From the NCBI GenBank assembly GCA_964406895.1, contig CAYOTK010000003.1, positions 9,529 to 73,528 on the forward strand: a DNA stretch of 64,000 nucleotides. Direction: 5' to 3'. The DNA comes from an uncultured Candidatus Saccharibacteria bacterium (GTDB lineage: Bacteria > Patescibacteriota > Minisyncoccia > Phycocordibacterales > PALSA-1337). The notes beneath the pieces were generated by a model. The model saw only the letters and a list, made by a program, of their open reading frames with translations. It did no database searches and had not been told where the DNA came from. The translations under genes and the position numbers were made by a program. How positions within the stretch are numbered: position 1 is the stretch's first letter; each line of letters begins with the position of its first letter. Of the stretch, positions 1,886 through 36,578 are shown one piece after another.

Positions 1886-1887
1886 AA

Positions 1888-2223
1888 ATGACCAAAGCAA
1901 TAGTAAAAACATACAATATAGCGAATCATTACTCGAGAAATGTCTTTTATTCTTGTCTTGTTTTCGCAACGATTTTCCTACTATCATATTGTTTTGGTGT
2001 TTACAAAGTTATTACACACACAGTTAGTTTGCAGAAATCAGAGTCATTGTCTCAAGAACTTTCTTTGCAAGTTCAGTCCTTAGACAAGAAATACATGGAA
2101 TTATCTAGTGATATAACTCCCGAGACAATAGCAAAATACGGTTTGCATGAAGTAGAAGTCAAGAATTTCATAGCCAAGAATTCTTCCTTCGGTCGTCTAG
2201 CAAGAAGTGGCCATGAACTCTAA
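1888..2223 (+). CDS. ftsL: FtsL-like cell division protein (small bitopic membrane protein)
   Basis: 111 aa with a single TM segment, then a coiled-coil-like stretch. It sits in the position between rsmH and ftsI. Confidence 0.5.
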   Translation: MTKAIVKTYNIANHYSRNVFYSCLVFATIFLLSYCFGVYKVITHTVSLQKSESLSQELSLQVQSLDKKYMELSSDITPETIAKYGLHEVEVKNFIAKNSSFGRLARSGHEL

Positions 2224-3934
2224 TCAGAAGATTAGAACTCGTATAGTACTTATCTGTATAATAGTTGTGGCATTGTGTATTGCCACAGCTTTGTATTTCA
2301 CGCAAATAGTGAATGGTGATAGTTATGCCAAAAAGGCTGATAAACAATATACGAAACCAAATATTTCTATTCTCGATAGAGGCACAATATATTTCAGGAA
2401 TAAAGACGGATCGAAAGTATCAGCCGCATCAATAATGAGTGGATATTCGATATATATGAATCCAGGATTGATCCAAAATCCTGCCGAAACATATGATGCC
2501 TTGTCACAATATATAACAATTAACAAAGATGATTTCTTGAAAAAAGCTAGCAGGAAGAATGATCCATATGAAGAAATAATTCACAAAGCTAGCAGTGATA
2601 AAGCAATATCGATTGGTGAGCTGTCGCTCAAAGGTATAGGTATTTCTAGGGAAAATTGGCGAGTATATTCAGGGGATTCTTTGGCTTCACATGTACTAGG
2701 TATTATAGGTGAGAGCAAGCTTGGATTCATGGAAGGGAAGTATGGCATAGAAAAATCTTTTGATGGTGTTCTTCATAGGAAACAATCAGGTTCAGGCAAG
2801 AATACATTCGCGGAACTTATGACAGATCTTAAGGACAGTGTTTTCGGTGGAGTTAATAGTGGTACGGAGGGAGATGTTGTGACTTCAATAGAACCCGCTG
2901 TGCAAAGTTATCTCGAGAAAGTTTTGAAACAGAAAAGCAATGAATGGCGACCTGATGAAATCGGTGGCATCATTATTGATCCTTCTACAGGAGAAATCAT
3001 AGCTATGGCTGCATTGCCTGATTTCAATCCAAATGATCTAAGTGGTCTTAAGGATTTGAAAGTTCTATCCAATCCGCTCGTAGAAAGAGTCTATGAAATG
3101 GGCTCGATAGTCAAACCGTTAACGGTAGCAATCGGTCTTGATAGTGGGACTATTGATAAGAAATTTACTTACAATGATACTGGGACATTAACACTGAGCG
3201 GAAAGAAAATAAGCAACTTCGACGGCAAGGCAAGAGGAGTTACGCCTCTTCAGCAGGTCTTGAGTCAGTCCTTGAATGTGGGATCAGCCACCATTGCTCT
3301 TAAGGTTGGTAAAGACATATTTACGAAATATATGACAAATTTCGGTTTGGGCAGTCGCTCAGGTATTGATTTGCCAAATGAAGCCACCGGACTTGTCAAT
3401 AACTTCAAAACAGGTCGTGATGTTGAAATTGCTACAGCAGCATATGGTCAGGGAATAGCGATTTCACCTATTTCTATGGTGAGAGCTTTGGCTATTTTAG
3501 CGAACGGTGGCAAACTTATCACTCCTCATGTTGTCAAAGAGATTGATTATAAGAATGGTAATACACACAGCACTTACGATCCTCAATTGGCAAAGAGTGT
3601 TATTTCTCCAGACACGGCCGAAGCGGTAACATCGATGTTGGTCACAGTCGTCGATACGGCACTGAAGCAGGGTACGATCAAAAGACAACATTATTCAGTG
3701 GCGGCCAAAACTGGCACCGCACAAATTCCCGATCATGTGAATGGTGGTTATTATTCTGACAGATATTTGCACTCATTTTTCGGATATTTCCCGGCATACA
3801 ATCCCAAATTTTTGATTTTCTTGTATCAGATTTACCCCAAGGGTGCGCAATACGCTTCTGAAACTTTGACTGAACCATTCGACGGATTGACCAAATATCT
3901 GATAGACTATTACAGCATCCCTCCTGATAGGTGA
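2207..3934 (+). CDS. ftsI: penicillin-binding protein 2 / FtsI transpeptidase
   Basis: 575 aa. N-terminal TM segment, SxxK-like GSIVKP motif, and KTGTA near the C-terminus (the KTG box). Confidence 0.85.
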   Translation: MAMNSNQKIRTRIVLICIIVVALCIATALYFTQIVNGDSYAKKADKQYTKPNISILDRGTIYFRNKDGSKVSAASIMSGYSIYMNPGLIQNPAETYDALSQYITINKDDFLKKASRKNDPYEEIIHKASSDKAISIGELSLKGIGISRENWRVYSGDSLASHVLGIIGESKLGFMEGKYGIEKSFDGVLHRKQSGSGKNTFAELMTDLKDSVFGGVNSGTEGDVVTSIEPAVQSYLEKVLKQKSNEWRPDEIGGIIIDPSTGEIIAMAALPDFNPNDLSGLKDLKVLSNPLVERVYEMGSIVKPLTVAIGLDSGTIDKKFTYNDTGTLTLSGKKISNFDGKARGVTPLQQVLSQSLNVGSATIALKVGKDIFTKYMTNFGLGSRSGIDLPNEATGLVNNFKTGRDVEIATAAYGQGIAISPISMVRALAILANGGKLITPHVVKEIDYKNGNTHSTYDPQLAKSVISPDTAEAVTSMLVTVVDTALKQGTIKRQHYSVAAKTGTAQIPDHVNGGYYSDRYLHSFFGYFPAYNPKFLIFLYQIYPKGAQYASETLTEPFDGLTKYLIDYYSIPPDR

Positions 3935-3940
3935 TGTATT

Positions 3941-5245
3941 ATGCTTAAGAAAATTGTTGTATATATTCTCACAATAGAATCCAGACTTATTCTGGCCAAA
4001 TATAAGCCCTTTATAATCACTATTACAGGTAGTGTGGGCAAGACTAGTACCAAAGATGCTATTTTTTCTGCTATCAAAAACAATTTTCATTATGCGAGGA
4101 AAAGCTATAAGAGCATGAATAGTGAGATCGGTTTGCCTCTTACCATCATAGGTGCCGCAAATGCTTGGAAAAATATTCTAGGTTGGTCTAAGAATATTTT
4201 TATTGGTTTTCAACTTATTATTTTTCGTAAAGAATACCCTGATTGTCTTGTCCTAGAAATTGGCGCAGATCATCCAAACGATATAAAGAAAGTTTCCAAA
4301 TGGTTGAAATCCGATATTGTTGTCATAAATAAAATTAGTAAAACTCCTGTACATGTCGAATTTTTCCCTTCAGCTCAAGATGTGTTCCAAGAAAAATCTT
4401 ATCTCATTGATACTTTGAAGAACAATGCAACTCTTATTCTGTATGGAGATGATGAACAAACACTCTCTCTTTCTCAAAAAGCCAAAGAAACCAATTCAAA
4501 GGTTTTGACATTTGGTGTAGATAAGCCGGCGACTGTTCGCGGTTTGTCTTGTGAAGTCAAGTATGTGAGTGACACAAGCGCCGTACCTTTGGGTATGCAA
4601 TTCGATGTTGATATGGTTGGGGACAAATTAACTTTCAATATTCCAGGTATTATCGGTAATACATATATTTATCCTATTCTCGCCGTTATTGCGGTTGCCA
4701 AATCTCTATCGATATCTTCATCACAAATCATAAAGTCCTTGAATGAGTACGAGCCACCTAGAGGTCGTATGAATATTATAAAAGGCAAGAATGATGTAAC
4801 GATAATTGATGACAGTTACAATTCTTCTCCTGATGCCGTCCTATCATCACTGCAATCCCTCAATAGTATTCGTTGTACAGGTGCCAAGATCGCTATTTTG
4901 GGTGATATGATGGAACTTGGTAAATTCTCTTCTCAAGAACACAAGAATATCGGCGCTGAATCAGTCAAATATTGCAACAAGCTTTTTGTGGTTGGTCTTA
5001 GATCTGAGGCAACTGCCAATGAAGCGATCAGAAATGGTATGAATCCAGATCTTGTAAGACGTTATAGAGATTCCCGTGAATTAGCGGCAGAAATTTCTGA
5101 TTTTGTTAAGGCAGGTGATATAGTGCTCGTGAAGGGTTCGCAATCTATGAGGATGGAAAGGATAGTCGCGGCTCTCATGGCTGAACCAGAACTTGCTTCG
5201 CAGTATTTGGTTAGGCAAGAGAAGGAATGGCTTGAGAAAAAGTAA
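3941..5245 (+). CDS. murF: Mur ligase family protein, MurF-like (UDP-MurNAc-tripeptide--D-Ala-D-Ala ligase)
   Basis: 434 aa with the ITGSVGKTSTKD P-loop of Mur ligases, in the dcw position after ftsI. Confidence 0.65.
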   Translation: MLKKIVVYILTIESRLILAKYKPFIITITGSVGKTSTKDAIFSAIKNNFHYARKSYKSMNSEIGLPLTIIGAANAWKNILGWSKNIFIGFQLIIFRKEYPDCLVLEIGADHPNDIKKVSKWLKSDIVVINKISKTPVHVEFFPSAQDVFQEKSYLIDTLKNNATLILYGDDEQTLSLSQKAKETNSKVLTFGVDKPATVRGLSCEVKYVSDTSAVPLGMQFDVDMVGDKLTFNIPGIIGNTYIYPILAVIAVAKSLSISSSQIIKSLNEYEPPRGRMNIIKGKNDVTIIDDSYNSSPDAVLSSLQSLNSIRCTGAKIAILGDMMELGKFSSQEHKNIGAESVKYCNKLFVVGLRSEATANEAIRNGMNPDLVRRYRDSRELAAEISDFVKAGDIVLVKGSQSMRMERIVAALMAEPELASQYLVRQEKEWLEKK

Positions 5246-6074: not shown

Positions 6075-7274
6075 ATGAACAAAATAATTAATGCGATAAA
6101 TTTGTATAAGATTGTGTTAATTATTGTTTTTATTGTCGTGTTGGTGTTCACAGTGAAGTATATTCGTTTTGATGATGCAGGAAATTCTGTACATGATTCT
6201 GATTTTAATAAACCAATCATATCTACAATTGTTACTGATTCATCGATAAAGTTACTTCTGAATGCAACAACGTCACCAATTGATACAACTAATTGGATAA
6301 GTGACACTGATGATAATTTTGATATATCATTCAAATACCCGTCGTCTTGGTTCTTATCAACAAATACAGATGAAAATGGTGCATATATCCTGACCGTTAC
6401 TAACTCTGACTTGAACAATGTATTCAAAATATTTTATACAAATTATGAAAATTGTGGTGGAAATGGTTACGATCAACCAGAACTAAGAGGCTACAAAGTT
6501 TCAGATAGTAATTGGGGTATAAGAGAAACATATATTTTACGTAGTGTGTGTTTTACAGACAAGCAGGTGGTAATTTATATGTCAGCAGGTTCAATTCAAG
6601 CAAAAAGTATCGAAGAACAAATATTAAATACCATATCCTTTGCAAAAAATGATCCCAAGGCATGGAAACATTTTTCTAACAGTAATCTTGGATTAGAATT
6701 TGATTATCCAACATATCTTGGTCATGTTATCGTTGAGAAAGGATCTCGAGGTTGTCCAGAGATGAAAACTTATTCTAGAAATGGTCAATTACCCACTGAG
6801 GATTACAATATCTGGTTTACAAATATGCAACGTATTGGTGTCGGTGGTTCTTATATGGATTACCATATTTCTGTGATTAGGACTGAGAACAATGTCAATA
6901 TATGTGGTAAAGATTTACTTGATTTCCGAAAAGATATTATACGTGATCCAAAATACCAGTCATCAGAATTTCCTCACCAGTTTGCTTCAAATGCGTACGT
7001 CTCAACAGTCGATACAACTATCGGTACATCTGTCAATCAGTTCTATACTCTGTATTTTATAAAAAGAAATATGATCAATGTTATTCAGCCAAATATCACT
7101 TTTATCCCTGTTGCTGGTTCAGATGAAGCGAAAGAAATTTCAAAAAATGAAACACCTGATGATCCATTCTCATCGATAGTTAATTTTGTTTTACATCATG
7201 ATAATGCTAAAAAGATTCGCGATTATTTACATGATTTTAGAAAAATTGTTGATACAATAAAAGTTAATGATTAA
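6075..7274 (+). CDS. hypothetical membrane-anchored protein
   Basis: 399 aa with an N-terminal TM anchor. No recognisable domain. AT-rich, so native to the backbone. Confidence 0.55.
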   Translation: MNKIINAINLYKIVLIIVFIVVLVFTVKYIRFDDAGNSVHDSDFNKPIISTIVTDSSIKLLLNATTSPIDTTNWISDTDDNFDISFKYPSSWFLSTNTDENGAYILTVTNSDLNNVFKIFYTNYENCGGNGYDQPELRGYKVSDSNWGIRETYILRSVCFTDKQVVIYMSAGSIQAKSIEEQILNTISFAKNDPKAWKHFSNSNLGLEFDYPTYLGHVIVEKGSRGCPEMKTYSRNGQLPTEDYNIWFTNMQRIGVGGSYMDYHISVIRTENNVNICGKDLLDFRKDIIRDPKYQSSEFPHQFASNAYVSTVDTTIGTSVNQFYTLYFIKRNMINVIQPNITFIPVAGSDEAKEISKNETPDDPFSSIVNFVLHHDNAKKIRDYLHDFRKIVDTIKVND

Positions 7275-7856: not shown

Positions 7857-8645
7857 TCAGTGTCGCCGCCTCCATTCTTGGTGGTATCCACGACCTTTCC
7901 GACCGCGGCCATCAGTCCAACCGTTTTCGCCGGGTTTGGGCTTTTTTCCGCGATTGCACCCGCCGGCTGCCATAACCAGCTCTTCGGGACTTTTGTCTCC
8001 GGAGGTTTCTTCGCCGGATTCTCCAGTAAGACTCTCGGTGTCCGGTCCGAAAATTCCCGGACTCCACTCACGCACCGTTGTCTCGATGGTGGCCGGCAGC
8101 TTCGCTTGAGGCAAAACGGTTAAGACCGGTGCGGTTTCAGTGATGATCACCGATTGATGGCCGTTTCGCGCCGGTTTGTTTGGTTTCATGGGAATGACCT
8201 TGCCATTGAGAGCCTTTTCCAGCTCCGCCAGGCCGTTTTTGTTTTCCGCATCACGAAGGTAGAAGTGTTTGTACCCCCATACGTAAGCCCGGGGTTTTTC
8301 GCTGTCGTAGGTCGGCGGTCGATTATCCAGGATGTAAAGGATCTTATTTCCGACCCGAGGTGGTTGGTTGAAAACCTCGCGCTTAATGTAGGGGTCGCCG
8401 TTATCGTTGGCGGAGACCTTACGACTTCGATTCATTTCGAAGTAGATCTCTACGCCGCTCGCGAGATCAATTGCCAGGCCGCACCAGCGAGTCGGATTAT
8501 ACTCAGTCACTCTCGCCGTTCGGATTTTGCCCCAAATATACTGAGTTGCACTCATGTAGTTTTTCTCCCATCTCCCCAAACAAACCATTATGGTCGAGCA
8601 TAGCTCTTGGAATATCCTCATTTGATCAACCGCCAAGCTGATCAA
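7857..8645 (-). CDS. hypothetical protein in a high-GC island, with an Arg/Gly-rich C-terminal tail (start may be the internal ATG at 8555)
   Basis: 262-aa ORF in a ~57% GC block. A TTGACA-N17-TAGTCT promoter-like motif lies upstream on the minus strand (8670-8700). C-terminus ...GRGRKGRGYHQEWRRRH. No family recognised. Confidence 0.45.
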   Translation of the reverse strand: MISLAVDQMRIFQELCSTIMVCLGRWEKNYMSATQYIWGKIRTARVTEYNPTRWCGLAIDLASGVEIYFEMNRSRKVSANDNGDPYIKREVFNQPPRVGNKILYILDNRPPTYDSEKPRAYVWGYKHFYLRDAENKNGLAELEKALNGKVIPMKPNKPARNGHQSVIITETAPVLTVLPQAKLPATIETTVREWSPGIFGPDTESLTGESGEETSGDKSPEELVMAAGGCNRGKKPKPGENGWTDGRGRKGRGYHQEWRRRH

Positions 8646-9145: not shown

Positions 9146-9214
9146 GCGACAATAATACTACAACTAAAACTTTTGCACAGTGAATTTCTATGAAAAAATC
9201 GCTATAATATTGTC

Positions 9215-12200
9215 ATGGACAGCGACGATAGCTACCCACGCCGAACCAGCGACCATAATGATACCAATAAGTTATCTTTCAAAAAGATAATTTTTCTTTT
9301 AGTTGGCATAATGTTCTTGCCTGGCATAGTTTATTCAGCGACTGGCGAGGTGCAGTTCAGTATTGCTTCTCAATATCAAATTGGTACGGCAGGAAGTTAT
9401 TTCAACAACGGCAATACTATTGCAAAAGTTTTCGATGGTGATTTGACTACTTGGTGGGATGCCAACCAATCATATGCGAATGGTTCAAATGTTGGTCTGG
9501 ATCTTACCGTAAATGCCAAGGTTACAAGAATGAGAGTGGCACCAAGAACTGGTTATACCGTGAGATTATTCGGTGCCGTATTGCAGGGAGCGACGGTAAG
9601 TTCAAGTACAGGACCTTGGACAACAATTTATACGATTCCTAGCTTCCCACCGTTCTATCCTCAGAGGCAACTCAATGAGATCTCTATAGATACTTCAGGA
9701 CAATATTACAGATATTATAGATTGGTGATGCCAAACGGGGCATACGGCTCGCTAGCGGAGATGAGATTGATAGGAGTAGCTTCTAGTACGACGCCATATT
9801 TACCAGTGGCGCCAACAATAAGTCCGATGGGAGGGAGGTTTCATCAACCGATACAAGTCAGTCTAAGTAGTCTGACAACAGACGCAACAATTTACTACAC
9901 AACAGATGGTACGACTCCAACATATAGTGGAGGTTCTCCACAAGGGACAACGCAGTTATATTCAGGACCGTTTATGGTAACAAATACTGCGACGACGACC
10001 GTCAAAGCTATTGCAGTTAGTGCTTCAACATATGTTTCTGAAGTTTCTGATACAGCGTATTTCTATATCAATCCATCATTTTATTCAGGCTGGAATTGGT
10101 ATGACACTTCAGGGCACCTCATAGAATCTCACGATGGCGGAATAAGTTATTTCAATGGTAAGTATTATTGGTACGGAGAAACTCTCAATAATAGTTCTCC
10201 CGAAATTGAGACGTTGGGTGCAACAGTTTATTCCTCGAATGACTTGCTCAATTGGAAATATGAAGGAATGGCATTATACGTCAACAATGCCTATAAACTA
10301 GAAAGACCGCATGTAATATACAATGCGACTTCAAGCACTTATGTTATGTGGGCACACAATGTGACGAATGCAAGAGCCGTCATTGCCACATCCAGTTCAC
10401 CGCTTGGACCATTTACAGCGTCTACTACATCTCAAAATCCAGACGGTATGGGCATGAATGATATGACTTTGTACAAGGATACAGACGGGACGGCATATCT
10501 TATATATACTTCAAGTGATAATACAAAGATGGTTATTTCTCGTTTAACGAGTGACTACGCTACTACTTCAAATACTTACATCACCTCATCAGCGAATGCC
10601 AATCGTAGCGCGCCTGCCGTATTCAAACGCGGTAGCATATATTTCTTGCTCAACTCCGGTCAAAACAGTTGGACAGCTACCGCCAATAAATATTCGACTT
10701 CAACAAGTATGTTGGGTACTTGGTCGACCCTTACAAATCCATTCCAATCAAGTGCAGAAGAAGATTATACTTTGGCCTATCATTCTCAAACCACTGATGT
10801 TCTTACGGTGCAGGGCAGAACAGATGGTTATGTATATATAGGCGACAGATTCGATGGTTCTGCGACCGCCTCGGGTTCTCTTTATAACAGTAGACATGTT
10901 TGGTTACCAATTACATTTCCTTATGCAGGAATGATGTCCATATCTTGGGCAAGTAGCTGGAGTTTGGACAGTGCATTTACTTCAGCGACCCTGCCAACTT
11001 CAGTTTCCAATCTTACAGCGACCAAAAACGGTTTATCAGTCAATCTTTCTTGGACTAACAATGAAACAAATTCATATAGCTTGTATTTGGATAGGGCTAC
11101 TGATAGTGCATTTACTCAAAATTTCATTTCAATATTTGCAAGTACAACTTTGAGTTCGTATACAGATTCAAATATCGTTAATGATACAAAATATTATTAT
11201 CGAATTCGAGTTATCACTGCGGCCGGGGTCAGCACATCATCGACTGTTATCGGTGATTTCTTACTATCTTCAGATACCACGGCTCCACAAGGCGAAATAA
11301 CAGTTCCGAGCAATGGAGCAACTGTGGTAGGCAGAACTGTTACACTTACTGCCTCTTCTTCAGATAATATTCAGGTCAGTTCTGTCCAATTCCAAGTCGA
11401 TAATGTAAACGTGGGTTCTTCCGGTGCAACATCGCCATATTCTATAACTTGGGATTCTACATCTGTATCAGACGGAGATCACACTATTCATGTTGTTGTA
11501 ACAGATAGTTCAGGCAATATCGCTACTTCAAGCGACGTAACTGTTCATGTTGCCAATCAGACTGTTACTGTAACTCCCGATGTCTCTACAATAGTCCAGA
11601 ATACAACCGGCAATACTATTGTTATAACAGGTAATGCGACATCATGGACGCCAGGCACTCCAGGTTCACCAACATTTAGTATAAGTGGGGGAACAGGTAC
11701 AACAATTACTAGTCAGACAGTTTCCAATAGCACAACAGCCACCCTAACTATTTCAGCGGGAAGTGCTGTTGGTACTTTCAAGATAATAGCGCCCGATAGT
11801 AATGCTTCAACAACTATAACTGTTTCGGCGGATACCATCGCACCTTTAGTTAGTATTACAACGCCGTCAGATGGCGCAACTCTTTCTGGATCAACTGTTA
11901 CTCTTACAGCATCGTCATCCGACAATGCAGCGGTTACAAGTGTTCAGTTCAAATTAGACAATGTAAGTATCGGTTCTTCAGGTGCAACATCGCCATATTC
12001 TATTACCTGGAATTCAACATCGGTGTCGGATGGTACCCACACTTTGGTTGCTGTCGTTGCGGACGGAGCAGGGAATATAAGTTCTTCTACAGCTATCAGT
12101 GTAACCATCAACAATTCTGTTGTGGCTTCTGTTTCGACATCAAACGCTTCATCCGTAGATATGTTTTCGGCTGTATTCAATGGTGTTATTTCAAATGATG

Positions 12201-15100
12201 GCGGTGCTAGTTCTACGGTGAAAGGTTTCCAATATGGTCTGACCAGTTCTCTCGGCACGACAATTTCCGAATCAGTTTTGGCAGGGGTCGGTAATTATTC
12301 TACAACCACAACAGGTCTTTCATGCGCCACTACATATTATTATAGATTCTATTCAACAAATCTTTCTGGAACTTCGTATGGTACAACCAAATCATTCACA
12401 ACATTGACTTGTCCTGCAGCCTCAGTATCAGGAGAAATACAATTTAGTACCGCATCGGCATACCAATTCGGTACTTCCGGTAGTTACAATAATAGTGGTA
12501 ACGTCATTTCAAAAGTTTTTGATAATGACGTTACAACATGGTGGGATTCTCAGACTGCAAACGGTGCTTATGCGGGATTGGATCTTAGAGTTCCACAAAT
12601 TGTTACAAGAATGAGAATTGCACCTCGAACTGGTTATACAGTTCGTGTTTATGGAGCCATTTTGCAGGGAGCGACAGTTAGTTCGACAACAGGTCCTTGG
12701 ACAAATATATACACCATACCTAGTTATCCTCCTTACTATGCGCAGAGACAGATGAATGAAATTGCAGTAGATACGGGTGGCAGTTCTTACAGATATTATA
12801 GGATAGTAATGCCTGATGGTACGAATGGTTCTTTGGCTGAATTCAAATTGATCGGTAATGCAGGAACAACGACGCCGTTTATTCCTGTAACTCCAACCAT
12901 AAGTCCAAATGGCGGGCAATATAGTTTGCCCATGAGAATAAGATTGAGTAGTTTGACTACCAACGCTTCGATCTACTATACAACTGATAATACAGTTCCT
13001 GCGGTTTCAAATGGCGTGCCTCAAGGCACTACACAACTTTATTCTGCTCCATTCACACTGAGCGCTTCGTCAACAGTTAGAGCGATAGCGGTGAGCACGC
13101 TCGGTCAAAACACTTTCACTTCAGAAGTTTCAGAACCATCATACTTTTATTTTGATACAGATTTCAAACCAGGCCAGAATTGGTACGATGAAGATGGTCA
13201 TCTCATAGAGTCTCATGATGGAGAAGTAGCATATTTCAATGGCAAGTATTATTGGTATGGACAGATATTCAACGGCAATGATCCTGAGAATGAAGCGGTG
13301 GGTGTTTCCGCTTATTCGTCGAGTGATCTTATTCATTGGAAAGATGAAGGTCCAATCATTTATATGGGTAGATCATATATGCTAGAAAGACCGCATGTTA
13401 TTTACAATGATTCAACACATAAATACGTTTTATGGGGGCATCACGTTATATCGTCAGGACATTCAACGGCTGTCGTTGCATATAACGATAGTCCTACGGG
13501 AGCATTCACTGTTGCAACAAGTTCATACAATCCTGATGGTTTGTATTTGAATGACATGAATCTTTACAAAGACGTAGATGGTCAAGCATATTTGTTATAT
13601 TCGATAGGTACAAATACTCAGTTCGTAATTTCTAGATTGACCTCAGATTATTTGCAAACTTCTGGTACGTATATAACTCCTGCCGTTCTTGCGGGTAGAG
13701 AAGCGCCCGCCATGATATTGAGAAATGGTGTGTATTTCTTATTAACTTCAGGCTTGTCTGGTTGGGCTCCAAATGAGAATAAATATTCAACTTCAACTAG
13801 TGTTATGGGTACTTGGTCATCTCTAGTAGATCCATTTCAAACAAGTGTTTTGGAGGATAGACTGACAGCATATCATTCTCAGACTACTGATATACAACAT
13901 GTACCAGGAAGAGGAGATGCTTATATTTATATTGGTGACAGATTCGATTATTCAAACACTTTGGCCGGCTCGCTTTATTATTCAAGGCATATATGGTTGC
14001 CCATGACATTCCCGACCAATAATACTATGTCTATAACGTGGGAACCGACTTGGAATCTAGACACTGTTTTCCCAACTGTTTATCCGCCTACAGCACTGAG
14101 CAATTTCACAGTTAGTAGAAGTGGCACCTCCGCAGACCTTTCTTGGACCAACAATGCCACGACATCTCACATGATATATGTAGATAGGGCAACTGATCAA
14201 AATTTCACTTCAAACGTAGTATCTGATCTTCGTCCCGAAGGTGCGACAACATTTACAGATTCATATTTATCATTGGGCACAGATTATTATTACAGAGTTC
14301 GTATAGTTAATGCAGACGGAACGAATTATTCAAGTACAGTTTCTACTATTGTAGTTGATAGTACGGCTCCAACACTTTCCTTGGCGTCTCCCTCTGGTAC
14401 TTTATCTATAAATACTACAAGTACATCTCTCAGTATTCAGACAAGTGAAAATGCTACATGTAAATATTCAACAATTTCCAATATTACATACTTGAGCATG
14501 ACCGCCTTCGACAACACAGGAGCTACCACGCACACGACAAATGTCAGTGGTTTGAGTAATGGTTCAACTTACAATTATTACGTCAAATGCGCAGACAGTT
14601 CGAATAATATAAGTGATCAAGCAACTATTACTTTCTCTGTGGCAAGTGAGACAGCGCCAACGCCTACACCGACCTCAGCATATGATCAGTCAGCCCATAC
14701 TTCATACGGTTCTTTTAATCTATATTATTACAACAAATATGTTGTACCAAACTTGCCACAAAATATTAAATCCAAGACAACTTCTAATAATCAGAAAAAT
14801 AATAATGTTTCAAGTTTCACTTCATTCAAGACAGAAATTAAAATGGGTTCTATAACAGAAGATGTTAGGGAATTGCAGAGGTTCCTGAATAAAAATGGTT
14901 TTCCAGTTGCGAAGACGGGCCCTGGATCCCCAGGCAAGGAAACAAATGTTTTCTCTACAGGAACTCAAGCAGCACTTATGAAATTCCAGGAAAAATACAA
15001 AAAACAGATTCTGGTTCCTGCTGGTCTCAATAAACCAAATGGTGTATTGGGTCCAAATACTAGGAAGCTCATTAATTCTATGAATGGAAAAAATAACTAG
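9215..15100 (+). CDS. giant secreted/cell-surface protein (1961 aa) with a tandem-duplicated module
   Basis: Each module reads, in order: F5/8-type-C (discoidin) domain with the TTWWD motif; CHB_HEX_C-like Ig domain (IYYTTDGT); GH43-like five-bladed beta-propeller (YKDTDG, S.DL..W, EAPA...YFLLTSG); FN3; Big/Ig domains. The C-terminus carries a PG_binding_1-type peptidoglycan-binding domain (LQRFLNKNGF...GPGSPG...QAALMKFQEKY). N-terminal signal/TM. Confidence 0.85.
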   Translation: MDSDDSYPRRTSDHNDTNKLSFKKIIFLLVGIMFLPGIVYSATGEVQFSIASQYQIGTAGSYFNNGNTIAKVFDGDLTTWWDANQSYANGSNVGLDLTVNAKVTRMRVAPRTGYTVRLFGAVLQGATVSSSTGPWTTIYTIPSFPPFYPQRQLNEISIDTSGQYYRYYRLVMPNGAYGSLAEMRLIGVASSTTPYLPVAPTISPMGGRFHQPIQVSLSSLTTDATIYYTTDGTTPTYSGGSPQGTTQLYSGPFMVTNTATTTVKAIAVSASTYVSEVSDTAYFYINPSFYSGWNWYDTSGHLIESHDGGISYFNGKYYWYGETLNNSSPEIETLGATVYSSNDLLNWKYEGMALYVNNAYKLERPHVIYNATSSTYVMWAHNVTNARAVIATSSSPLGPFTASTTSQNPDGMGMNDMTLYKDTDGTAYLIYTSSDNTKMVISRLTSDYATTSNTYITSSANANRSAPAVFKRGSIYFLLNSGQNSWTATANKYSTSTSMLGTWSTLTNPFQSSAEEDYTLAYHSQTTDVLTVQGRTDGYVYIGDRFDGSATASGSLYNSRHVWLPITFPYAGMMSISWASSWSLDSAFTSATLPTSVSNLTATKNGLSVNLSWTNNETNSYSLYLDRATDSAFTQNFISIFASTTLSSYTDSNIVNDTKYYYRIRVITAAGVSTSSTVIGDFLLSSDTTAPQGEITVPSNGATVVGRTVTLTASSSDNIQVSSVQFQVDNVNVGSSGATSPYSITWDSTSVSDGDHTIHVVVTDSSGNIATSSDVTVHVANQTVTVTPDVSTIVQNTTGNTIVITGNATSWTPGTPGSPTFSISGGTGTTITSQTVSNSTTATLTISAGSAVGTFKIIAPDSNASTTITVSADTIAPLVSITTPSDGATLSGSTVTLTASSSDNAAVTSVQFKLDNVSIGSSGATSPYSITWNSTSVSDGTHTLVAVVADGAGNISSSTAISVTINNSVVASVSTSNASSVDMFSAVFNGVISNDGGASSTVKGFQYGLTSSLGTTISESVLAGVGNYSTTTTGLSCATTYYYRFYSTNLSGTSYGTTKSFTTLTCPAASVSGEIQFSTASAYQFGTSGSYNNSGNVISKVFDNDVTTWWDSQTANGAYAGLDLRVPQIVTRMRIAPRTGYTVRVYGAILQGATVSSTTGPWTNIYTIPSYPPYYAQRQMNEIAVDTGGSSYRYYRIVMPDGTNGSLAEFKLIGNAGTTTPFIPVTPTISPNGGQYSLPMRIRLSSLTTNASIYYTTDNTVPAVSNGVPQGTTQLYSAPFTLSASSTVRAIAVSTLGQNTFTSEVSEPSYFYFDTDFKPGQNWYDEDGHLIESHDGEVAYFNGKYYWYGQIFNGNDPENEAVGVSAYSSSDLIHWKDEGPIIYMGRSYMLERPHVIYNDSTHKYVLWGHHVISSGHSTAVVAYNDSPTGAFTVATSSYNPDGLYLNDMNLYKDVDGQAYLLYSIGTNTQFVISRLTSDYLQTSGTYITPAVLAGREAPAMILRNGVYFLLTSGLSGWAPNENKYSTSTSVMGTWSSLVDPFQTSVLEDRLTAYHSQTTDIQHVPGRGDAYIYIGDRFDYSNTLAGSLYYSRHIWLPMTFPTNNTMSITWEPTWNLDTVFPTVYPPTALSNFTVSRSGTSADLSWTNNATTSHMIYVDRATDQNFTSNVVSDLRPEGATTFTDSYLSLGTDYYYRVRIVNADGTNYSSTVSTIVVDSTAPTLSLASPSGTLSINTTSTSLSIQTSENATCKYSTISNITYLSMTAFDNTGATTHTTNVSGLSNGSTYNYYVKCADSSNNISDQATITFSVASETAPTPTPTSAYDQSAHTSYGSFNLYYYNKYVVPNLPQNIKSKTTSNNQKNNNVSSFTSFKTEIKMGSITEDVRELQRFLNKNGFPVAKTGPGSPGKETNVFSTGTQAALMKFQEKYKKQILVPAGLNKPNGVLGPNTRKLINSMNGKNN

Positions 15101-15119: not shown

Positions 15120-17273
15120 ATGGACAAGAAATTCCTGAAACCGTACGATCCCGCAAATACTGAAGCTAATATCTATGCCAAATGGGAGGAAAGCGGTTTT
15201 TTCAACCCAGACAAATTGCCGGGAGACAGAAAGCAAACTTTCACAATCATGTTGCCCCCACCGAACGCAACAGGTATTTTGCATTTAGGGCACGCTCTCG
15301 AAAGTGCAATACAAGACATTGCAACAAGATATTCACGCATGAAAGGCAAGAAATCCCTATGGCTTCCAGGAACTGATCATGCAGCCATAGCCACCAATAC
15401 AAAAGTCGAGAAAGAAATGATCAAAGCCGAAGGTAAGAATCGTCATGACATAGGTCGTGAGGCTTTCATAGAAAGAGTCGAGAATTATGTCGCTGGCAGT
15501 CGTGGCACAATTCAGAAACAAATCCGCAGACTTGGTGCCTCTTGTGATTGGAGTAGGGAAGCTTTTACCTTCGATGACAAGCGCAATTTCGCTGTCAACA
15601 CTGCATTCAAAGAAATGTATGATGCAGGACTTATATATCGCGGTTTCAAAGTTATCAATTGGGATCCGAAAGGTCAAACAACCGTGTCAGACGATGAGGT
15701 TAACTACAAAGCAGAAAAGGGCAGACTGTACACATTCAAATACAGTAAGGATTTTCCTATTGCAATTGCAACAACAAGACCAGAAACCAAAGTTGGTGAT
15801 ACGGCGGTTGCTGTTCATCCTGATGACGAAAGATACAAAAATTATATAGGCAAAGAATTCAAAGGCATTTCTTTCGCGGGTGCCACTTTGAATATCAAAA
15901 TAATTTCAGACGAGAATATTGATCCGCTTTTCGGCACGGGCGCGGTCGGAGTTACACCAGCTCATAGTTTGGTGGACGCGGATATGGCACAGAAGAACAA
16001 TTTACCAATGATTCAGGTCACAGATGAATATGCTCGCATGAATGAGAATGCTGGTCCAATTGTTTCTGGCAAGAAAACAAAAGAAGCAAGAGATATTATT
16101 GTTGCTTGGCTCAAAGAAAATAATTTGCTTCTGGAAGAAAAAGAAATAGACATGAATATTTCTGTGGCCGAGAGAAGCGGCGGCGTTATAGAGCCTATGC
16201 CAAAATTGCAGTGGTTCGTCAATGTCAATCATCCTATAGCCAAAAGAGGCGGCAAAACTCTCAAACAACTTATGCAGGAACCTGTCCTGAGTGGTGATAT
16301 CAAAATCATGCCTGATCGATTCGAGAAAATATACTTTCATTGGATATCCAATCTTCGTGACTGGTGTATTAGTAGGCAGCTATGGTATGGGCACAGAATT
16401 CCTGTTTGGTATAAAGACAAAGAAATATACTGTGGCACAGTGGCTCCGGAAGATTCCGGCTGGAAGCAAGACGAGGACACGCTAGATACGTGGTTTTCTT
16501 CAGCTTTGTGGACTTTTTCTACATTAGGCTGGCCTGAACAAACCAAAGATCTCAAAACTTTCCATCCAACAGATCTTATGGCTCCAGGTTATGAAATTCT
16601 ATTTTTCTGGGTTGCAAGAATGATATTAATGTCTCAATTTCTTGTCGGTGAGATTCCATTCAGGACTGTATATCTACACGGAATATTGCGTGACAAAAAA
16701 GGCCAGAAATTCAGCAAGTCTCTCGGAAATGGAATAGATCCCATAGAAATTATCAACAAATATGGTGCAGATGCGCTCCGTATGTCTCTTGTTGTTGGTA
16801 TTGGTCCAGGGAATGACGCCAACTTTGATGAAAACAAAGTCAAATCATACAAAAATTTCGCCAACAAACTCTGGAACATTACTCGATTCGTTTTGTCGAG
16901 CACGGAAGATGTGAGTGTAGATAGAGCATTTGATAGTTATTCATCTGTTGATACAGAGATTTGGAAGACATGGCGAGATTCTTTGAAGGATATTATCACT
17001 GACATGGACAACCTCAGATATTACCTTGCTGCAGAAAAACTCTATCATTATGCTTGGCATACTTTTGCTGACATAATTCTCGAACAAAGTAAGGAAATAT
17101 TACTAAATGGTCAAGAATATGACAAAGTTTCCCGTAAGAATTTATTGCTCAATATTTTGAGTGAGATACTTATTTGTTTGCACCCATTCATGCCTTTTGT
17201 TACAGAAGAAATATGGTCTTCAATGCCGATTAATGATAAGAAGATGCTCATCATCGAATCTTGGCCAATATAA
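15120..17273 (+). CDS. valS: valyl-tRNA synthetase (short, 717 aa)
   Basis: The PPPNATGILHLGHA HIGH region is characteristic of ValRS, with KFSKS as the KMSKS motif. It lacks the long C-terminal coiled-coil extension. Confidence 0.8.
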   Translation: MDKKFLKPYDPANTEANIYAKWEESGFFNPDKLPGDRKQTFTIMLPPPNATGILHLGHALESAIQDIATRYSRMKGKKSLWLPGTDHAAIATNTKVEKEMIKAEGKNRHDIGREAFIERVENYVAGSRGTIQKQIRRLGASCDWSREAFTFDDKRNFAVNTAFKEMYDAGLIYRGFKVINWDPKGQTTVSDDEVNYKAEKGRLYTFKYSKDFPIAIATTRPETKVGDTAVAVHPDDERYKNYIGKEFKGISFAGATLNIKIISDENIDPLFGTGAVGVTPAHSLVDADMAQKNNLPMIQVTDEYARMNENAGPIVSGKKTKEARDIIVAWLKENNLLLEEKEIDMNISVAERSGGVIEPMPKLQWFVNVNHPIAKRGGKTLKQLMQEPVLSGDIKIMPDRFEKIYFHWISNLRDWCISRQLWYGHRIPVWYKDKEIYCGTVAPEDSGWKQDEDTLDTWFSSALWTFSTLGWPEQTKDLKTFHPTDLMAPGYEILFFWVARMILMSQFLVGEIPFRTVYLHGILRDKKGQKFSKSLGNGIDPIEIINKYGADALRMSLVVGIGPGNDANFDENKVKSYKNFANKLWNITRFVLSSTEDVSVDRAFDSYSSVDTEIWKTWRDSLKDIITDMDNLRYYLAAEKLYHYAWHTFADIILEQSKEILLNGQEYDKVSRKNLLLNILSEILICLHPFMPFVTEEIWSSMPINDKKMLIIESWPI

Positions 17274-17274
17274 A

Positions 17275-17943
17275 ATGTTTAATAAGGAAAAGCTCATCAC
17301 GAAATTCGTCAGAATTACGCAGTTTGCGACATGGCCAATATTATATCCGCTCTTTCATGTTATGTTTCGTATAGAAATTATCAATCGTCACAAAATTGAT
17401 AATATATCAAGACCTTTTATTATTGTCGCCAATCATACCAATTTCTACGATAGTTTTATCTTCAGAATTGTTTTTGGTTTCAAATATTTGCCACTTAGAT
17501 TCATGGCTGTTACAAAGTTTGATTGGGATTTCCTGAACAAATTGGCTCATTGTGGAATTATCAATTTTATATACTCATTATTTGGAGTTTTTACGGTCAC
17601 TCCAGGTCTTGGTATTGAGAAAAATCTTATTCGTCCCATAAACATTATCCGAAATGGTGGCAATGTTCTCATATACCCTGAGGGTCGTATTATTCATTCA
17701 GAGCACATTGGTCCATTCAAGAAGGGTGCTGTTGTTCTTGCTCAGAAAACTGGTAGAGATATTTTGCCTATATGTATGAAATTTACCAAAACCAATTCAT
17801 ATCGTAAGCATTTGAAAATAATTATTTTGAAGAAATTCAGATGTCCAGCTCACAAATCTTCTGATGTTTTGACCAATGAACTAAGAGATATTATTGTGGC
17901 AGTGAATGATGCTTCCGAGAGTCATTCAGGAAGGGAAGTGTGA
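17275..17943 (+). CDS. 1-acyl-sn-glycerol-3-phosphate acyltransferase family (PlsC-like)
   Basis: ANHTNFYD (HX4D) and YPEGR motifs. Start set at the internal ATG at 17275, just after the valS stop. Confidence 0.7.
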   Translation: MFNKEKLITKFVRITQFATWPILYPLFHVMFRIEIINRHKIDNISRPFIIVANHTNFYDSFIFRIVFGFKYLPLRFMAVTKFDWDFLNKLAHCGIINFIYSLFGVFTVTPGLGIEKNLIRPINIIRNGGNVLIYPEGRIIHSEHIGPFKKGAVVLAQKTGRDILPICMKFTKTNSYRKHLKIIILKKFRCPAHKSSDVLTNELRDIIVAVNDASESHSGREV

Positions 17944-19603
17944 CTGTTACAGTTGCGCCCATATTTTCTCCAGGGGATTCGATCGTGATTTCCCCTCTAT
18001 GCGCACGAACTATTGCACGAGCCACTGACAGGCCTATGCCCATGCCGATTGGGTGAGTATCTTGAGCCTTTTTGCTCCTATAGAATAGTCGAGTAAATAA
18101 ATTATTTCTTTCTTCTTTTGTAATACCCACGCCCGTGTTTTCTACGAATACTTGGAGGACTTCACTCTCATGGCCGTGCATATTTTTCACTGATCTTTCT
18201 GTAGAGATTTTTATTTCGCCGTCTTTTCTGTTGTAACGTATAGCATTTTCTATGATTATCAATACGACTTCATGGATTTTGCTTATATCAACGTCTATTT
18301 CAGGCCAGTTTCTATCGTCTTTTGGATAAGTAATATTTATATTCATATTTCCTATATCGATTTTGAGCTCGCTCAATACTTGTTCCAGAATAGTCTTCAT
18401 GTTCGCTCTTGATATTTCGAGGATTTCTGAGCCGGTCCTAATAGCTGTAATATTCAGGAAATCATCCACCAACCTAAGTAATCTCCGCGTGCAAATGTCT
18501 ATATTACGTATCGAAGTCATTGCTTCTTCATTGATCGCGCCCCGTTCGCCCTTCATAAGTGCTTCTGTTTCCCAACGAATACTGGTAACTGGTGTGCGCA
18601 AATTATGCTGTGTAATCATAATGAACTGATCTTTCGTCTCATTGAGTTTTTCCAATTCTCGCCTGACGCCTTTTTCCATCTCAAACGCCTTCTTCACTTC
18701 CGCTGTTTGCTCCGCGACCTTCTGTTCCAGGGTGAGGTTGAGGATGCGGAGGGATTCTTGTTGATTGACTTCATGAATAATACTTTTAAATAGATACAAA
18801 GAAAAAATTATAAATAATATTAAGGTAGCAATCTTAAGCAAAACATTTGAGTTAATATCTGTAAAAATATTTATGAAGAATAATAGCGTCATACCGACAG
18901 CGAGTAGTTCAGCAATTACTGCCTTAACGTCCATTTGTTTATATTTGATTATGGAATATGAAATAATTGGAATCCATATTATTTCCGAAGCCGCCCCCAG
19001 CCAATTTAATTTGAAGTATCCGAGCCTAGGTAAAATTATACACATAATTGTTGCTGGTATTGAACCTGTTACGATGGTTAGTAACATGAATTTAATATTT
19101 GATCTGATTTTAATATCTATATTTCGGATTAATTTTTTTAGTAATATCAAGATTCCAAACACGAAGCAGAAGCCAAATATAAATTCAAACACAAATGAAA
19201 TTGGCCCAAAATCCCATCTCCAGTAGCCGGTGGTACTTAGATTGACCGTTGATATTATGCCTTCAGTAAATATAAAAATAATGCCGAGAGCCACTGATAA
19301 CAGAGTAAGGATATTTTGATATATTTTATTTACGTTATGGTTTTCTGGATAAGACAGAAAAAATATTAGAAAACTAATTGCAATTATATCGCCCATAAGG
19401 TAATTAATTCTTGCCACGTATAATGCAAGTTCTGCTGATCTCGTAGATGTTAAAATTGCAACACCAGCAATCCAGATTGATACCCAGAATATGCTATTTG
19501 AAAAAGCTTTGGAGGATATCTTGTCACTACCTAATCTTATAATAAGAGCCAAGCTAAATATAATTGAAGCCACGATCCACACAATTAGTGAAATATTAAC
19601 CAT
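17891..19603 (-). CDS. sensor histidine kinase with a multi-TM N-terminus
   Basis: 570 aa with at least 8 predicted TM helices. HisKA H-box ITQHNLRTPVTSI and HATPase_c N/G boxes. Confidence 0.8.
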   Translation of the reverse strand: MVNISLIVWIVASIIFSLALIIRLGSDKISSKAFSNSIFWVSIWIAGVAILTSTRSAELALYVARINYLMGDIIAISFLIFFLSYPENHNVNKIYQNILTLLSVALGIIFIFTEGIISTVNLSTTGYWRWDFGPISFVFEFIFGFCFVFGILILLKKLIRNIDIKIRSNIKFMLLTIVTGSIPATIMCIILPRLGYFKLNWLGAASEIIWIPIISYSIIKYKQMDVKAVIAELLAVGMTLLFFINIFTDINSNVLLKIATLILFIIFSLYLFKSIIHEVNQQESLRILNLTLEQKVAEQTAEVKKAFEMEKGVRRELEKLNETKDQFIMITQHNLRTPVTSIRWETEALMKGERGAINEEAMTSIRNIDICTRRLLRLVDDFLNITAIRTGSEILEISRANMKTILEQVLSELKIDIGNMNINITYPKDDRNWPEIDVDISKIHEVVLIIIENAIRYNRKDGEIKISTERSVKNMHGHESEVLQVFVENTGVGITKEERNNLFTRLFYRSKKAQDTHPIGMGIGLSVARAIVRAHRGEITIESPGENMGATVTVTLPFLNDSRKHHSLPQ

Positions 19604-19645: not shown

Positions 19646-20341
19646 ATGACTTTAAGAAACAAATTTCGTATATTTCAATCTGATCATATTTTTATAGCCT
19701 TTACATATTTGATTTTAAGAAAGGTTATTGGAATTTTGATACGATTGTTTTTTGTTAAATCTGTTAATGGTTTACAAAACATTTCTTTGCACGGCAGTTC
19801 AATAATTGTATTCAATCATCAGAGTTATATGGATTTCTTGTGTTTTGCATCTGTAGCTCCAAGGAATATACACTTCTTATCCGCTGAAAAATTCTTTGAA
19901 CACAAATTATGGAGAATACTGATGGTATTAACCGGGCAAATTAAAGTAGATCGCTTTTTGCATGATAAGAGTGTTAGTTATAAAGCAGTTGCTGATCATG
20001 TCAATAAGGGTAAGGTGATTGGTATATTTCCAGAAGGCACTCGTTCACCGCACGAAAATCATATGCTTAAGTTTTACACTGGTGCAGTAAGATTTGCATT
20101 ACATCACAAGGTGCCTATTATTCCAGTTGGAATTGTTGGAACTTTTAAAGTCTGGCCTAAACATTTAAAATTTCCTAAAATAAAAAAAATTGTAGAAATA
20201 AATATTGGCAAACCGATGACTTTCTTTGAACATTATGGCAAACAAGAAGATGATGAATTATGTTCAAATATAATGAAAAAAGTGATAAGAGAAATTGAGT
20301 TATTGTCTGGTAAGAAATATCAATATTATGAAAACAAATAA
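19646..20341 (+). CDS. lysophospholipid acyltransferase (PlsC family)
   Basis: NHQSYMD (HX4D) and FPEGTRS motifs. Confidence 0.7.
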   Translation: MTLRNKFRIFQSDHIFIAFTYLILRKVIGILIRLFFVKSVNGLQNISLHGSSIIVFNHQSYMDFLCFASVAPRNIHFLSAEKFFEHKLWRILMVLTGQIKVDRFLHDKSVSYKAVADHVNKGKVIGIFPEGTRSPHENHMLKFYTGAVRFALHHKVPIIPVGIVGTFKVWPKHLKFPKIKKIVEINIGKPMTFFEHYGKQEDDELCSNIMKKVIREIELLSGKKYQYYENK

Positions 20342-36113: not shown

Positions 36114-36578
36114 ATGACAGAACTTACAACTGGTGTAGTGTTCCTTATGTCTTCGCTATATGGTGCCGGTCAAGTAAATGCTACAGCAAATGCCACCGTT
36201 ATTCCTACAGCAACAGACAAACAGGGCATTGAATCTGTTACAGAAAAGGACTTCAATGATTCGAAAGTAGTTGAACAGTACGTTAAAAAAGAATATGCAA
36301 GCGAACCTCTTCTTATAGAAATTGCCAGATGTGAATCTACTTTCCGTCAGTATGACAAGGATGGTACGGTTATACGTGGTAAGGTCAATAAGAACGACGT
36401 TGGCATAATGCAAATTAACGAAAAGTATCACGGCGAGACAGCGGCCAATCATGGTTATGATATATATACCGTGAAGGGTAATCTAGACTTCGCCAAATAC
36501 CTTTATGAGAAATATGGTGCTTCACCATGGTCAGCTTCGGCCAAATGTTGGTCAGGAGGTGATGTTGCGATGAAGTAA
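36114..36578 (+). CDS. secreted lytic-transglycosylase / lysozyme-like (SLT-like) protein
   Basis: Signal peptide; an E-S catalytic motif (ARCESTFRQ) and GIMQIN, as in SLT domains. TTGACA-N17-TACACT lies upstream. Confidence 0.55.
   Translation: MTELTTGVVFLMSSLYGAGQVNATANATVIPTATDKQGIESVTEKDFNDSKVVEQYVKKEYASEPLLIEIARCESTFRQYDKDGTVIRGKVNKNDVGIMQINEKYHGETAANHGYDIYTVKGNLDFAKYLYEKYGASPWSASAKCWSGGDVAMK

Follow-up and report, generated by a model that had tools for sequence, protein, structure and literature searches.

Glycosidase folds that have lost catalysis can serve as lectins, as in the GH18 chitinase-like lectins, where the catalytic glutamate is replaced. Gram-positive bacteria carry wall-associated multi-domain glycosidases composed of CBM32-type modules, FN3/Ig spacers and a wall anchor. 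Subfamily 24 of glycoside hydrolase family 43 (GH43_24) does without the aspartate base found in other GH43 enzymes. In Pc1,3Gal43A the acid role falls to Glu208 and the base role to Gln263, with Asp158 modulating the pKa and Glu102 recognising the axial O4; Glu102, Glu208 and Gln263 are each essential, their mutants (including E208A and E208Q) giving no detectable product (PMC7939473). The Glu57 and Tyr126 positions have been described as fully conserved across the subfamily (PMC7939473). Here we describe a giant gene found in a 64,000-nucleotide stretch of DNA (positions 9,529 to 73,528 of contig CAYOTK010000003.1, assembly GCA_964406895.1; hereafter the window) from a bacterium of the candidate phyla radiation (CPR). 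Its product contains two modules, each with a GH43_24-type propeller; the acid is replaced by serine in the first, presumably distal one (module 1) and retained in the second, presumably wall-proximal one (module 2), and the same pairing of a disabled with an intact propeller recurs across the orthologues. With rather more confidence than doubt, we regard the product as a Sec-exported CPR surface protein tethered by its PG_binding_1 domain, which would combine an active inner galactosidase with a lectin-like outer pseudo-enzyme.

The gene (9215..15100, + strand) is a single uninterrupted open reading frame (ORF) with an ATG start, coding for 1961 amino acids (aa). Two public contigs, assembled independently of each other, encode an identical 1961-aa protein; the longer of them is Logan SRR12487045_10031. 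When the protein was split and its halves were aligned, aa 41-690 matched aa 1070-1720 at 53% identity over 761 aligned columns (E = 0), with identical domain order. An earlier reading of this DNA made from the letters alone (the sequence-only reading) had proposed two modules of the same domain order, about 850 aa each: the repeat was borne out by this alignment and by the doubled Pfam domains, while the size was not, since the well-conserved unit is about 650 aa long, or about 750 aa with the weakly similar Ig domain counted in. Identity between the modules falls along the chain, from 69% in CBM62 to 61% in CHB_HEX_C, 57% in the propeller, 43% in the FN3 domain and 25% in the Ig-like domain behind it. 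A spacer of about 380 aa (Big_7, an unassigned Ig-like domain, Big_7, and an FN3-like domain) parts the two units. Pfam matches above the gathering scores were obtained for CHB_HEX_C_1/Fn3_assoc (two copies, 53.2 and 45.9 bits against a cut-off of 22), Glyco_hydro_43 (two copies), Big_7 (110 bits for two copies against 24.1; the copies are 66% identical to each other) and PG_binding_1 (one copy), while the fn3 and F5/8-type-C matches fell below the Pfam threshold when the window sequence was scored alone. The features of the gene are as follows.

9215..15100, + strand: whole gene, 1961-aa multi-domain protein, predicted to be secreted (end includes the stop codon)
9215..9337, + strand: N-terminal signal peptide or anchor (hydropathy scan; cleavage inferred)
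9338..9784, + strand: CBM62 copy 1, a galactose-binding-like jelly roll (phmmer, profile, AlphaFold2 and Foldseek)
9824..10060, + strand: CHB_HEX_C_1/Fn3_assoc copy 1 (Pfam, 53.2 bits)
10082..10984, + strand: GH43 subfamily-24-like five-bladed propeller of module 1, predicted pseudo-enzyme (PDB matches, AlphaFold2, Foldseek)
10607..10609, + strand: codon AGC, Ser465, at the catalytic-acid position (alignment to Glu208 of Pc1,3Gal43A)
11003..11269, + strand: FN3-like domain behind propeller 1 (fn3 E 0.021, below threshold; 43% identical to the module-2 copy)
11282..12412, + strand: spacer or stalk of Big_7, Ig-like (aa 785-870), Big_7 and FN3/PhoD_N-like (aa 968-1066) domains (Pfam; order as in orthologues)
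12425..12868, + strand: CBM62 copy 2 (69% identical to copy 1; member of domain alignment A3)
12905..13144, + strand: CHB_HEX_C_1/Fn3_assoc copy 2 (Pfam, 45.9 bits)
13166..14077, + strand: GH43 subfamily-24-like propeller of module 2, predicted active glycosidase (PDB matches, residue table)
13700..13702, + strand: codon GAA, Glu1496, predicted catalytic acid (alignment)
14090..14644, + strand: FN3-like and a further Ig/FN3-like domain behind propeller 2 (fn3 E 3.6e-4; PhoD_N/Pur_ac_phosph_N-like E 0.004-0.013; all below threshold)
14645..14854, + strand: low-complexity linker rich in Thr, Pro, Asn and Ser (read from the sequence)
14858..15067, + strand: C-terminal PG_binding_1 (Pfam, 36.1 bits against a cut-off of 23, E 7.4e-9)

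The propellers, which the sequence-only reading had correctly taken for five-bladed and GH43-like, matched GH43_24 structures rather than a non-glycosidase fold. The best solved relatives of both are exo-beta-1,3-galactanases/galactosidases (6eug, 6euf, 3vsf, 7bys, 5flw and 3nqh; E from 1e-21 to 7e-51). The module-1 propeller (aa 290-590) matched 6eug at 7e-51, 6euf at 1e-41, 3vsf at 6e-41 and 7bys at 2e-34, and the module-2 propeller (aa 1318-1621) matched 6eug at 6e-48, 3vsf and 6euf each at 4e-42 and 7bys at 3e-36. Other GH43 structures gave E values of 1e-12 or worse with both propellers, the best module-2 match without a beta-1,3-galactanase label being 3kst (E 4e-8); the Pfam GH43 score of the module-2 propeller was 51.7 bits against a cut-off of 32.2. 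The AlphaFold2 model of the module-1 propeller was confident (predicted local distance difference test, pLDDT, 86.3; predicted template modelling score 0.88), and all of the top 10 structures that Foldseek retrieved with it belonged to GH43_24 (template modelling score, TM, 0.78-0.85; 0.81-0.85 for 6euf, 3vsf and 7bys). Judged by the nearest solved structures, both propellers are of the GH43 subfamily 24 type, and that of module 1, a member by homology, should not be filed as an enzyme.

The catalytic positions were compared with those of Pc1,3Gal43A through sequence alignments, the numbering of the paper being that of the 7bys chain plus 21, as verified at the E208A and E208Q mutant chains.

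Glu57 of Pc1,3Gal43A: Glu322 in module 1, Gln1350 in module 2
Glu102 / Arg103 of Pc1,3Gal43A: Glu363 / Arg364 in module 1, Glu1391 / Arg1392 in module 2
Tyr126 of Pc1,3Gal43A: 3-residue deletion in module 1, Ser (ISSGH) in module 2
Arg157 of Pc1,3Gal43A: Asn in module 1, Asn in module 2
Asp158 of Pc1,3Gal43A: Asp416 in module 1, Asp1447 in module 2
Asn180 of Pc1,3Gal43A: Asn436 in module 1, Asn1467 in module 2
Glu208 (acid) of Pc1,3Gal43A: Ser465 in module 1, Glu1496 in module 2
Gly228 of Pc1,3Gal43A: Ser485 in module 1, Gly1516 in module 2
Trp229 of Pc1,3Gal43A: Trp486 in module 1, Trp1517 in module 2
Gln263 (base) of Pc1,3Gal43A: Gln525 in module 1, Gln1556 in module 2

The sequence-only reading had placed a putative acid in the second propeller and serine in the first, and the alignment agrees: Ser465 in the module-1 motif RSAPAVFKRGSIYFLLNSG and Glu1496 in the module-2 motif REAPAMILRNGVYFLLTSG share the column of Glu208, that is, of the REAP/NEAP/YEAP motif of the other solved GH43_24 enzymes. 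The Asp/Asp/Glu triad it had expected is, however, the wrong template, the GH43_24 set being Glu102, Asp158, Glu208 and Gln263. This set is complete in module 2 (Glu1391, Asp1447, Glu1496 and Gln1556); the essential trio Glu102/Glu208/Gln263 reads E, E, Q in module 2 and E, S, Q in module 1. Of the eight -1 subsite positions described as conserved in GH43_24 (Glu57, Glu102, Arg103, Tyr126, Asp158, Glu208, Trp229 and Gln263), module 2 keeps six and departs at Glu57 (Gln1350) and Tyr126 (Ser), the latter position retaining Tyr in the module-2 copies of the orthologues P0121/P0122 and P0123 (in P0123 as read from the sequence). By its residues, module 1 is probably hydrolytically dead, with nothing to protonate the leaving group.

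Relatives were collected in two ways: the module-1 propeller served as query for an exhaustive HMMER search, and module 1 for a word-indexed one. A small close family was found at 52-64% identity, with at least five full or frameshifted tandem orthologues. P0121 (1840 aa), P0122 (2330 aa) and P0123 (1919 aa) have two propellers each, and a 2427-aa orthologue at locus L005 is colinear with aa 18-1794 of the window protein; the domain order of the spacer is the same in orthologues as in the window protein. The remaining members are fragments: P0124 and P0006 are N-truncated with module 2 only, P0004 is a module-2-type fragment starting at a contig end, and P0001, P0002 and P0003 are module-1-like. 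At loci L002 and L003, both on metagenome contigs, the orthologous gene carries on in a different frame, which makes P0001 and P0003 parts of frameshifted tandem proteins. The breaks lie at about 8615-9090 in L002, where the discoidin/CBM62 part is upstream in the other frame, and at about 12528-12541 in L003, inside the Ig spacer; they may reflect either misassembly of a long, repetitive gene or genuine pseudogenisation.

All propeller copies were extracted and aligned to one hidden Markov model, and the key columns were tabulated for eight module-1 rows (seven distinct orthologues, as L005 duplicates P0122) and eight module-2 rows. The acid position reads S, D, D, A, A, N, S and L in the module-1 rows, with Glu in none of the eight, and Glu in all module-2 rows. 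The view of one inactive or lectin-like and one active copy, also taken from the sequence-only reading, is thus supported at the residue level well beyond the window. In module 1, Glu102 is lost in six of seven scorable rows (R/T/Q) and Gln263 in two orthologues (I/L), Asn180 varies to S/T/R and Trp229 to F/Y, and the Tyr126-loop deletion is common to all aligned copies. Residues kept in all module-1 copies are His41 (where the sequence covers it), a basic residue at 103, an acidic one at 158 and an aromatic one at 229; the window copy is the least degenerate of them. The scorable module-2 rows agree at 11 of 12 scored positions (H41, Q at 57, E102, R103, N at 157, D158, N180, E208, G228, W229 and Q263).

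These data bear on two readings in which module 1 would be no pseudo-enzyme. In the first, Ser465 or the tandem duplication itself is an artefact of sequencing or assembly. The frameshifts inside the gene at L002 and L003 do indicate that long repetitive genes of this kind are error-prone in assemblies. However, the codons AGC (Ser465) and GAA (Glu1496) differ at all three bases, so Ser465 is not a single-base read error; the identical protein occurs on two contigs, the modules are only 53% identical and could not be collapsed or duplicated by an assembler, and the same architecture is present in at least five other assemblies. We consider an artefact practically negligible, and a sequencing error behind Ser465 was rejected in view of the three-base codon difference, the two contigs and the orthologues. 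In the second, module 1 still catalyses, using another acid or another reaction (good leaving groups, or a transglycosylase), and the protein unites two enzymes that differ in specificity. Bifidobacteria are known to have multi-domain proteins with two active GH43 domains; the window module 1 keeps Glu363, Asp416 and Gln525, as well as Glu322, whose Glu57 equivalent is missing from module 2, and two orthologues have Asp at the acid position. Yet no replacement acid is conserved (S, D, A, N and L occur), both Glu102 and Gln263 are gone from the orthologues that have Asp there, and Glu102, Glu208 and Gln263 are individually essential in Pc1,3Gal43A (PMC7939473), so that a catalytic module 1 seems very improbable.

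In a neighbour-joining tree the module-1 propellers form one clade, sister to the module-2 clade; hence both the duplication and the acid loss go back to the ancestor of the family and are older than these species. Between the same pairs of species, module 1 is 52-60% identical and module 2 58-67%, and module-1 branches are longer than module-2 branches. Module-1 orthologues overall are 46-61% identical with intact propellers; module 1 thus appears to evolve somewhat faster than module 2, yet to be clearly maintained under constraint. At the sequence level, an essential residue has been lost, the loss is common to the orthologues and the domain is constrained, as in a pseudo-enzyme. Another explanation takes module 1 for a copy in decay or of purely structural use, a folded spacer that neither cuts nor binds sugar. 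The longer branches fit this, and so does the wide variation of pocket residues among the orthologues (at the positions of Glu102, Asn180, Trp229 and Gln263). It is at odds with the presence of an intact module 1 in every orthologue and the confident fold of the window copy (pLDDT 86), and with the retention of His41, basic 103, acidic 158 and aromatic 229, which are the needs of a sugar-binding pocket; moreover, the cheaper Ig/FN3 domains already serve as spacers in the same protein. We hold a mere spacer to be quite improbable, and galactan binding by module 1 is plausible on the residues retained.

Outside the tandem family, the acid Glu is kept in 170 of 183 related propellers. Of the 195 full-length copies of related propellers examined, 19 (about 1 in 10) lack it. 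A second, unrelated acid-less GH43_24-like group (A/T/S at the acid position; P0035, P0038, P0125, P0137, P0162, P0101 and P0102) was also observed; its proteins often have two propellers, carry Cys for His41, Ala for Glu102 and His for Arg103, and one is named from a metagenome-assembled genome (MAG) of Eubacterium sp. GH43_24 propellers have thus been disabled on more than one occasion.

The N-terminal domain of each module was called F5/8-type-C or discoidin in the sequence-only reading, which holds for the fold superfamily; more precisely, the domain matched CBM62 of Clostridium thermocellum CtXyl5A (2yb7_A) with E of 1.2e-20 in phmmer and 9e-59 in a profile search. The AlphaFold2 model of copy 1 (pLDDT 85) was superimposed by Foldseek on 2yg0 with TM 0.78/0.90, a root-mean-square deviation of 1.8 Å, 35% identity and E of 4e-12, and both window copies retain the invariant residues of domain alignment A3. 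The F5/8 type C family (PF00754) scored 22.4 and 18.6 bits against a gathering score of 28.2, and PF22633 scored 23.8 bits against 27.8 for one copy and 29.2 bits for the whole protein; PF00754 was matched at E <= 1e-3 by 22 of 22 homologous domains. By these matches the domains are CBM62, a more precise assignment than F5/8 type C within the same fold superfamily. CBM62 is described as specific for galactose-containing polysaccharides in the discussion of PMC5063996 and in the title of Montanier 2011, which fits the galacto-specificity of GH43_24 propellers.

The N-terminus has a charged n-region followed by the sole hydrophobic segment of the protein in the hydropathy scan (aa 20-44, ending ...VYS|ATGEV). 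It lacks a canonical AxA site; at the corresponding place the orthologues show canonical signal-peptidase sites (AxA|ATGEV). The C-terminal PG_binding_1 domain (PF01471, aa 1882-1951), predicted in the sequence-only reading, scored well above its gathering threshold; orthologues end in the same domain, with two copies in P0122/L005 and one in P0123. Together these features suggest that the protein is exported by the Sec pathway and retained on the wall through PG_binding_1. At L004, a PG_binding-like C-terminal part was seen as a separate 275-aa ORF (3284-4111) just behind the P0004 module-2-type gene; this is either another frameshift or a wall-binding tail made as a polypeptide of its own.

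The source of the gene can be placed through its neighbours. The DnaK protein of the window is 82-84% identical to proteins named Patescibacteria group, Paceibacterota, Parcubacteria or Pacebacteria, and TypA on L002, beside another family member, is 74-81% identical to proteins of Parcubacteria, Taylorbacteria and Paceibacterota. When one genome of each GTDB species was scanned, the sole close locus (59%) was in a MAG labelled "uncultured Candidatus Saccharibacteria bacterium", the remaining loci being at most 39% identical and mostly from Bacteroidota. All three placeable family members are therefore CPR. The window encodes MraW, FtsI/PBP, a Mur ligase, MurG and FtsW, and the presence of the last four indicates that the organism makes peptidoglycan.

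In the mechanism that we propose, the Sec pathway would export the protein to the surface of the CPR cell, where PG_binding_1 would hold it non-covalently on peptidoglycan, most simply that of its own wall, with the remainder projecting outward. The wall-proximal unit (CBM62, CHB_HEX_C, GH43_24-type propeller and FN3) would act as an exo-acting inverting beta-galactosidase/galactanase, with Glu1496 as acid, Gln1556 as base, Asp1447 as pKa modulator and Glu1391 reading the axial O4 of galactose. The distal unit, on its stalk of about 380 aa of Ig/FN3 domains, would be an old paralogue that has lost the acid (Ser465) and the Tyr126 loop and does not hydrolyse, and may retain a sugar pocket (Glu363, Arg364, Asp416, Asn436, Trp486 and Gln525); with the two CBM62 modules it could form a multivalent lectin at the tip of the stalk, capturing galactose-terminated chains for the active unit. 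The substrate is presumably a galactose-terminated, probably beta-1,3-linked glycan. Several points weigh against this mechanism. First, module 2 is atypical for GH43_24, with Glu57 replaced by Gln in all module-2 orthologues, Arg157 by Asn, and Tyr126 by Ser in the window copy; its linkage specificity is therefore uncertain, and the substrate may not be beta-1,3-galactan. Second, module 1 lacks the Tyr126 loop, a contact to O4/C6 of the -1 galactose, and with Glu102, Asn180, Trp229 and Gln263 varying among orthologues a conserved galactose pocket is at most putative. Third, the E208A crystal of Pc1,3Gal43A contained no ligand in the catalytic site (PMC7939473). Fourth, no sugar transporter or galactose-catabolism gene was found near the giant gene in the window. 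Finally, PG_binding_1 could equally grip the wall of another cell.

The last two points lead to an alternative function, that of a host-attachment adhesin, in which the outer propeller and CBM62 grip a galactose-containing host polymer and the active propeller only remodels this polymer locally; in a variant, PG_binding_1 could grip the host wall while the N-terminus stays membrane-anchored. Such a function would agree with the lack of sugar uptake and catabolism genes next to the giant gene, with the CPR-type housekeeping genes of the window and L002 and the Saccharibacteria-labelled MAG of the third member, with the long Ig/FN3 stalk bearing distal binding modules, a typical adhesin geometry, and with the N-terminal segment, which for want of an AxA site could stay as an anchor. 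However, this support is taxonomic and geometric in kind, GH43_24 and CBM62 are classically tools for plant arabinogalactan and hemicellulose, and the orthologues have canonical cleavable signal peptides; an adhesin, though compatible with all that was observed, is judged unlikely. An episymbiont or attachment role, put forward in the sequence-only reading, is one that we, too, can at most infer. A more specific version, a CPR-specific device of cell-to-cell attachment, is more doubtful still: the fossil glycosidase propeller would be the receptor head for a galactose-bearing surface polymer of the partner, which the active paralogue would digest locally. If this were true, local digestion would bring the envelopes together or feed the symbiont, and the variable pocket residues of module 1 would represent adaptation to different partners.

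The gene neighbourhood gives no functional hint, as synteny between the window and loci L002-L005 is nil except for the giant gene. The window is a housekeeping chromosome region with several aminoacyl-tRNA synthetases, DnaK, DnaJ, GrpE, RpoA, ribosomal protein S4 and tRNA-Glu; a mobile or phage origin of the giant gene was rejected, its flanks being housekeeping genes and its composition unremarkable. A perfect TATAAT hexamer precedes the giant-gene ATG by 6 nt (9203-9214) and was not called by the consensus promoter scan. Neither a Shine-Dalgarno-like sequence nor a matching -35 box accompanies it, so a leaderless mRNA is conceivable. Promoter and terminator scans around the giant gene gave chance-level results only, and the terminator scan found no terminator-like site between it and the synthetase gene that starts 20 nt downstream. 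This gene (15120-17273, + strand) codes for a class Ia aminoacyl-tRNA synthetase of only 717 aa, which a Leu-type editing-domain model matches weakly (E about 1e-3, about 30 residues), and its editing domain may be reduced. Further downstream, two paralogous HisKA_7TM histidine kinases (17891-19603, - strand, and 20988-22589, + strand) alternate with acyltransferase (PF01553) genes (17161-17943 and 19646-20341, both + strand), and no response regulator was seen adjoining the kinases. The cell-wall and division genes form two clusters about 37 kb apart, at 983-5245 (MraW, FtsI/PBP, Mur ligase) and 42340-44573 (MurG, FtsW), and an M23 peptidase (39062-40351) and an SLT-domain protein (36114-36578) are encoded nearby. 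No significant Pfam family was matched by eight ORFs of 240-468 aa, of which two lie shortly before the giant gene:

6075-7274
7857-8645
22963-24315
24387-25466
34584-35306
37252-38112
56888-58294
58314-59417

CPR bacteria (Patescibacteria) have tiny genomes, and their ways of getting sugars or holding partners are for the most part poorly understood. For a genome of this kind 5.9 kb is much to spend on one gene, and the conserved division of labour between an outer disabled and an inner intact galactanase propeller, each with CBM62, makes the protein a candidate for surface glycan capture in CPR. It is also a case in nature of what is probably a shift from glycosidase to lectin, in a chain that still contains the active paralogue. 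For the annotation of carbohydrate-active enzymes, the proportion of acid-less copies among the related propellers examined means that counts of GH43 domains overstate catalytic capacity.

In comparison with the known GH43_24 enzymes (Pc1,3Gal43A, 7bys; Ct1,3Gal43A, 3vsf; BT3683, 6eug; BT0265, 6euf), the window protein has the same five-bladed propeller at about 30-35% identity (E to 7e-51), and module 2 shares with them Glu208, Gln263, Glu102/Arg103, Asp158, Asn180, Gly228 and Trp229. The pairing of the propeller with a galactan-binding module is as in Pc (CBM35) and Ct (CBM13), CBM62 being used here. Unlike these enzymes, the window chain has two propellers, the first without the acid and the Tyr126 loop, shows the substitutions at Glu57, Arg157 and Tyr126 in module 2, and adds an Ig/FN3 stalk and a peptidoglycan-binding tail; its source is a CPR bacterium, whereas the known sources are plant-biomass degraders. 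The CBM62 of CtXyl5A (2yb7/2yfu/2yg0) is similar in sequence and fold (35% identity), but belongs to a cellulosomal xylanase, while in the window protein the domain is present twice, each time N-terminal to a GH43_24 propeller. As in the GH18 chitinase-like lectins, a glycosidase fold has been kept with its acid substituted and the copy maintained over long evolutionary time; the fold and family are different, the dead copy is fused in cis to a live paralogue and conserved with it as a pair, and its lectin role is putative. With the Gram-positive wall glycosidases the protein shares a signal peptide, catalytic and CBM modules, Ig/FN3 spacers and a C-terminal wall-retention domain, but it uses the non-covalent PG_binding_1 instead of LPXTG/sortase, SLH or choline-binding repeats, and its catalytic unit is duplicated with one copy disabled. 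A literature search, partial in coverage, on Patescibacteria with GH43 or on inactive tandem GH43 domains found nothing relevant. The parts are thus all of known kinds (GH43_24, CBM62, PG_binding_1, Ig/FN3 spacers and pseudo-glycosidases); what appears to be undescribed is the combination, in cis, of a disabled propeller with its live paralogue, each having its own CBM62, and the conservation of this form across CPR lineages.

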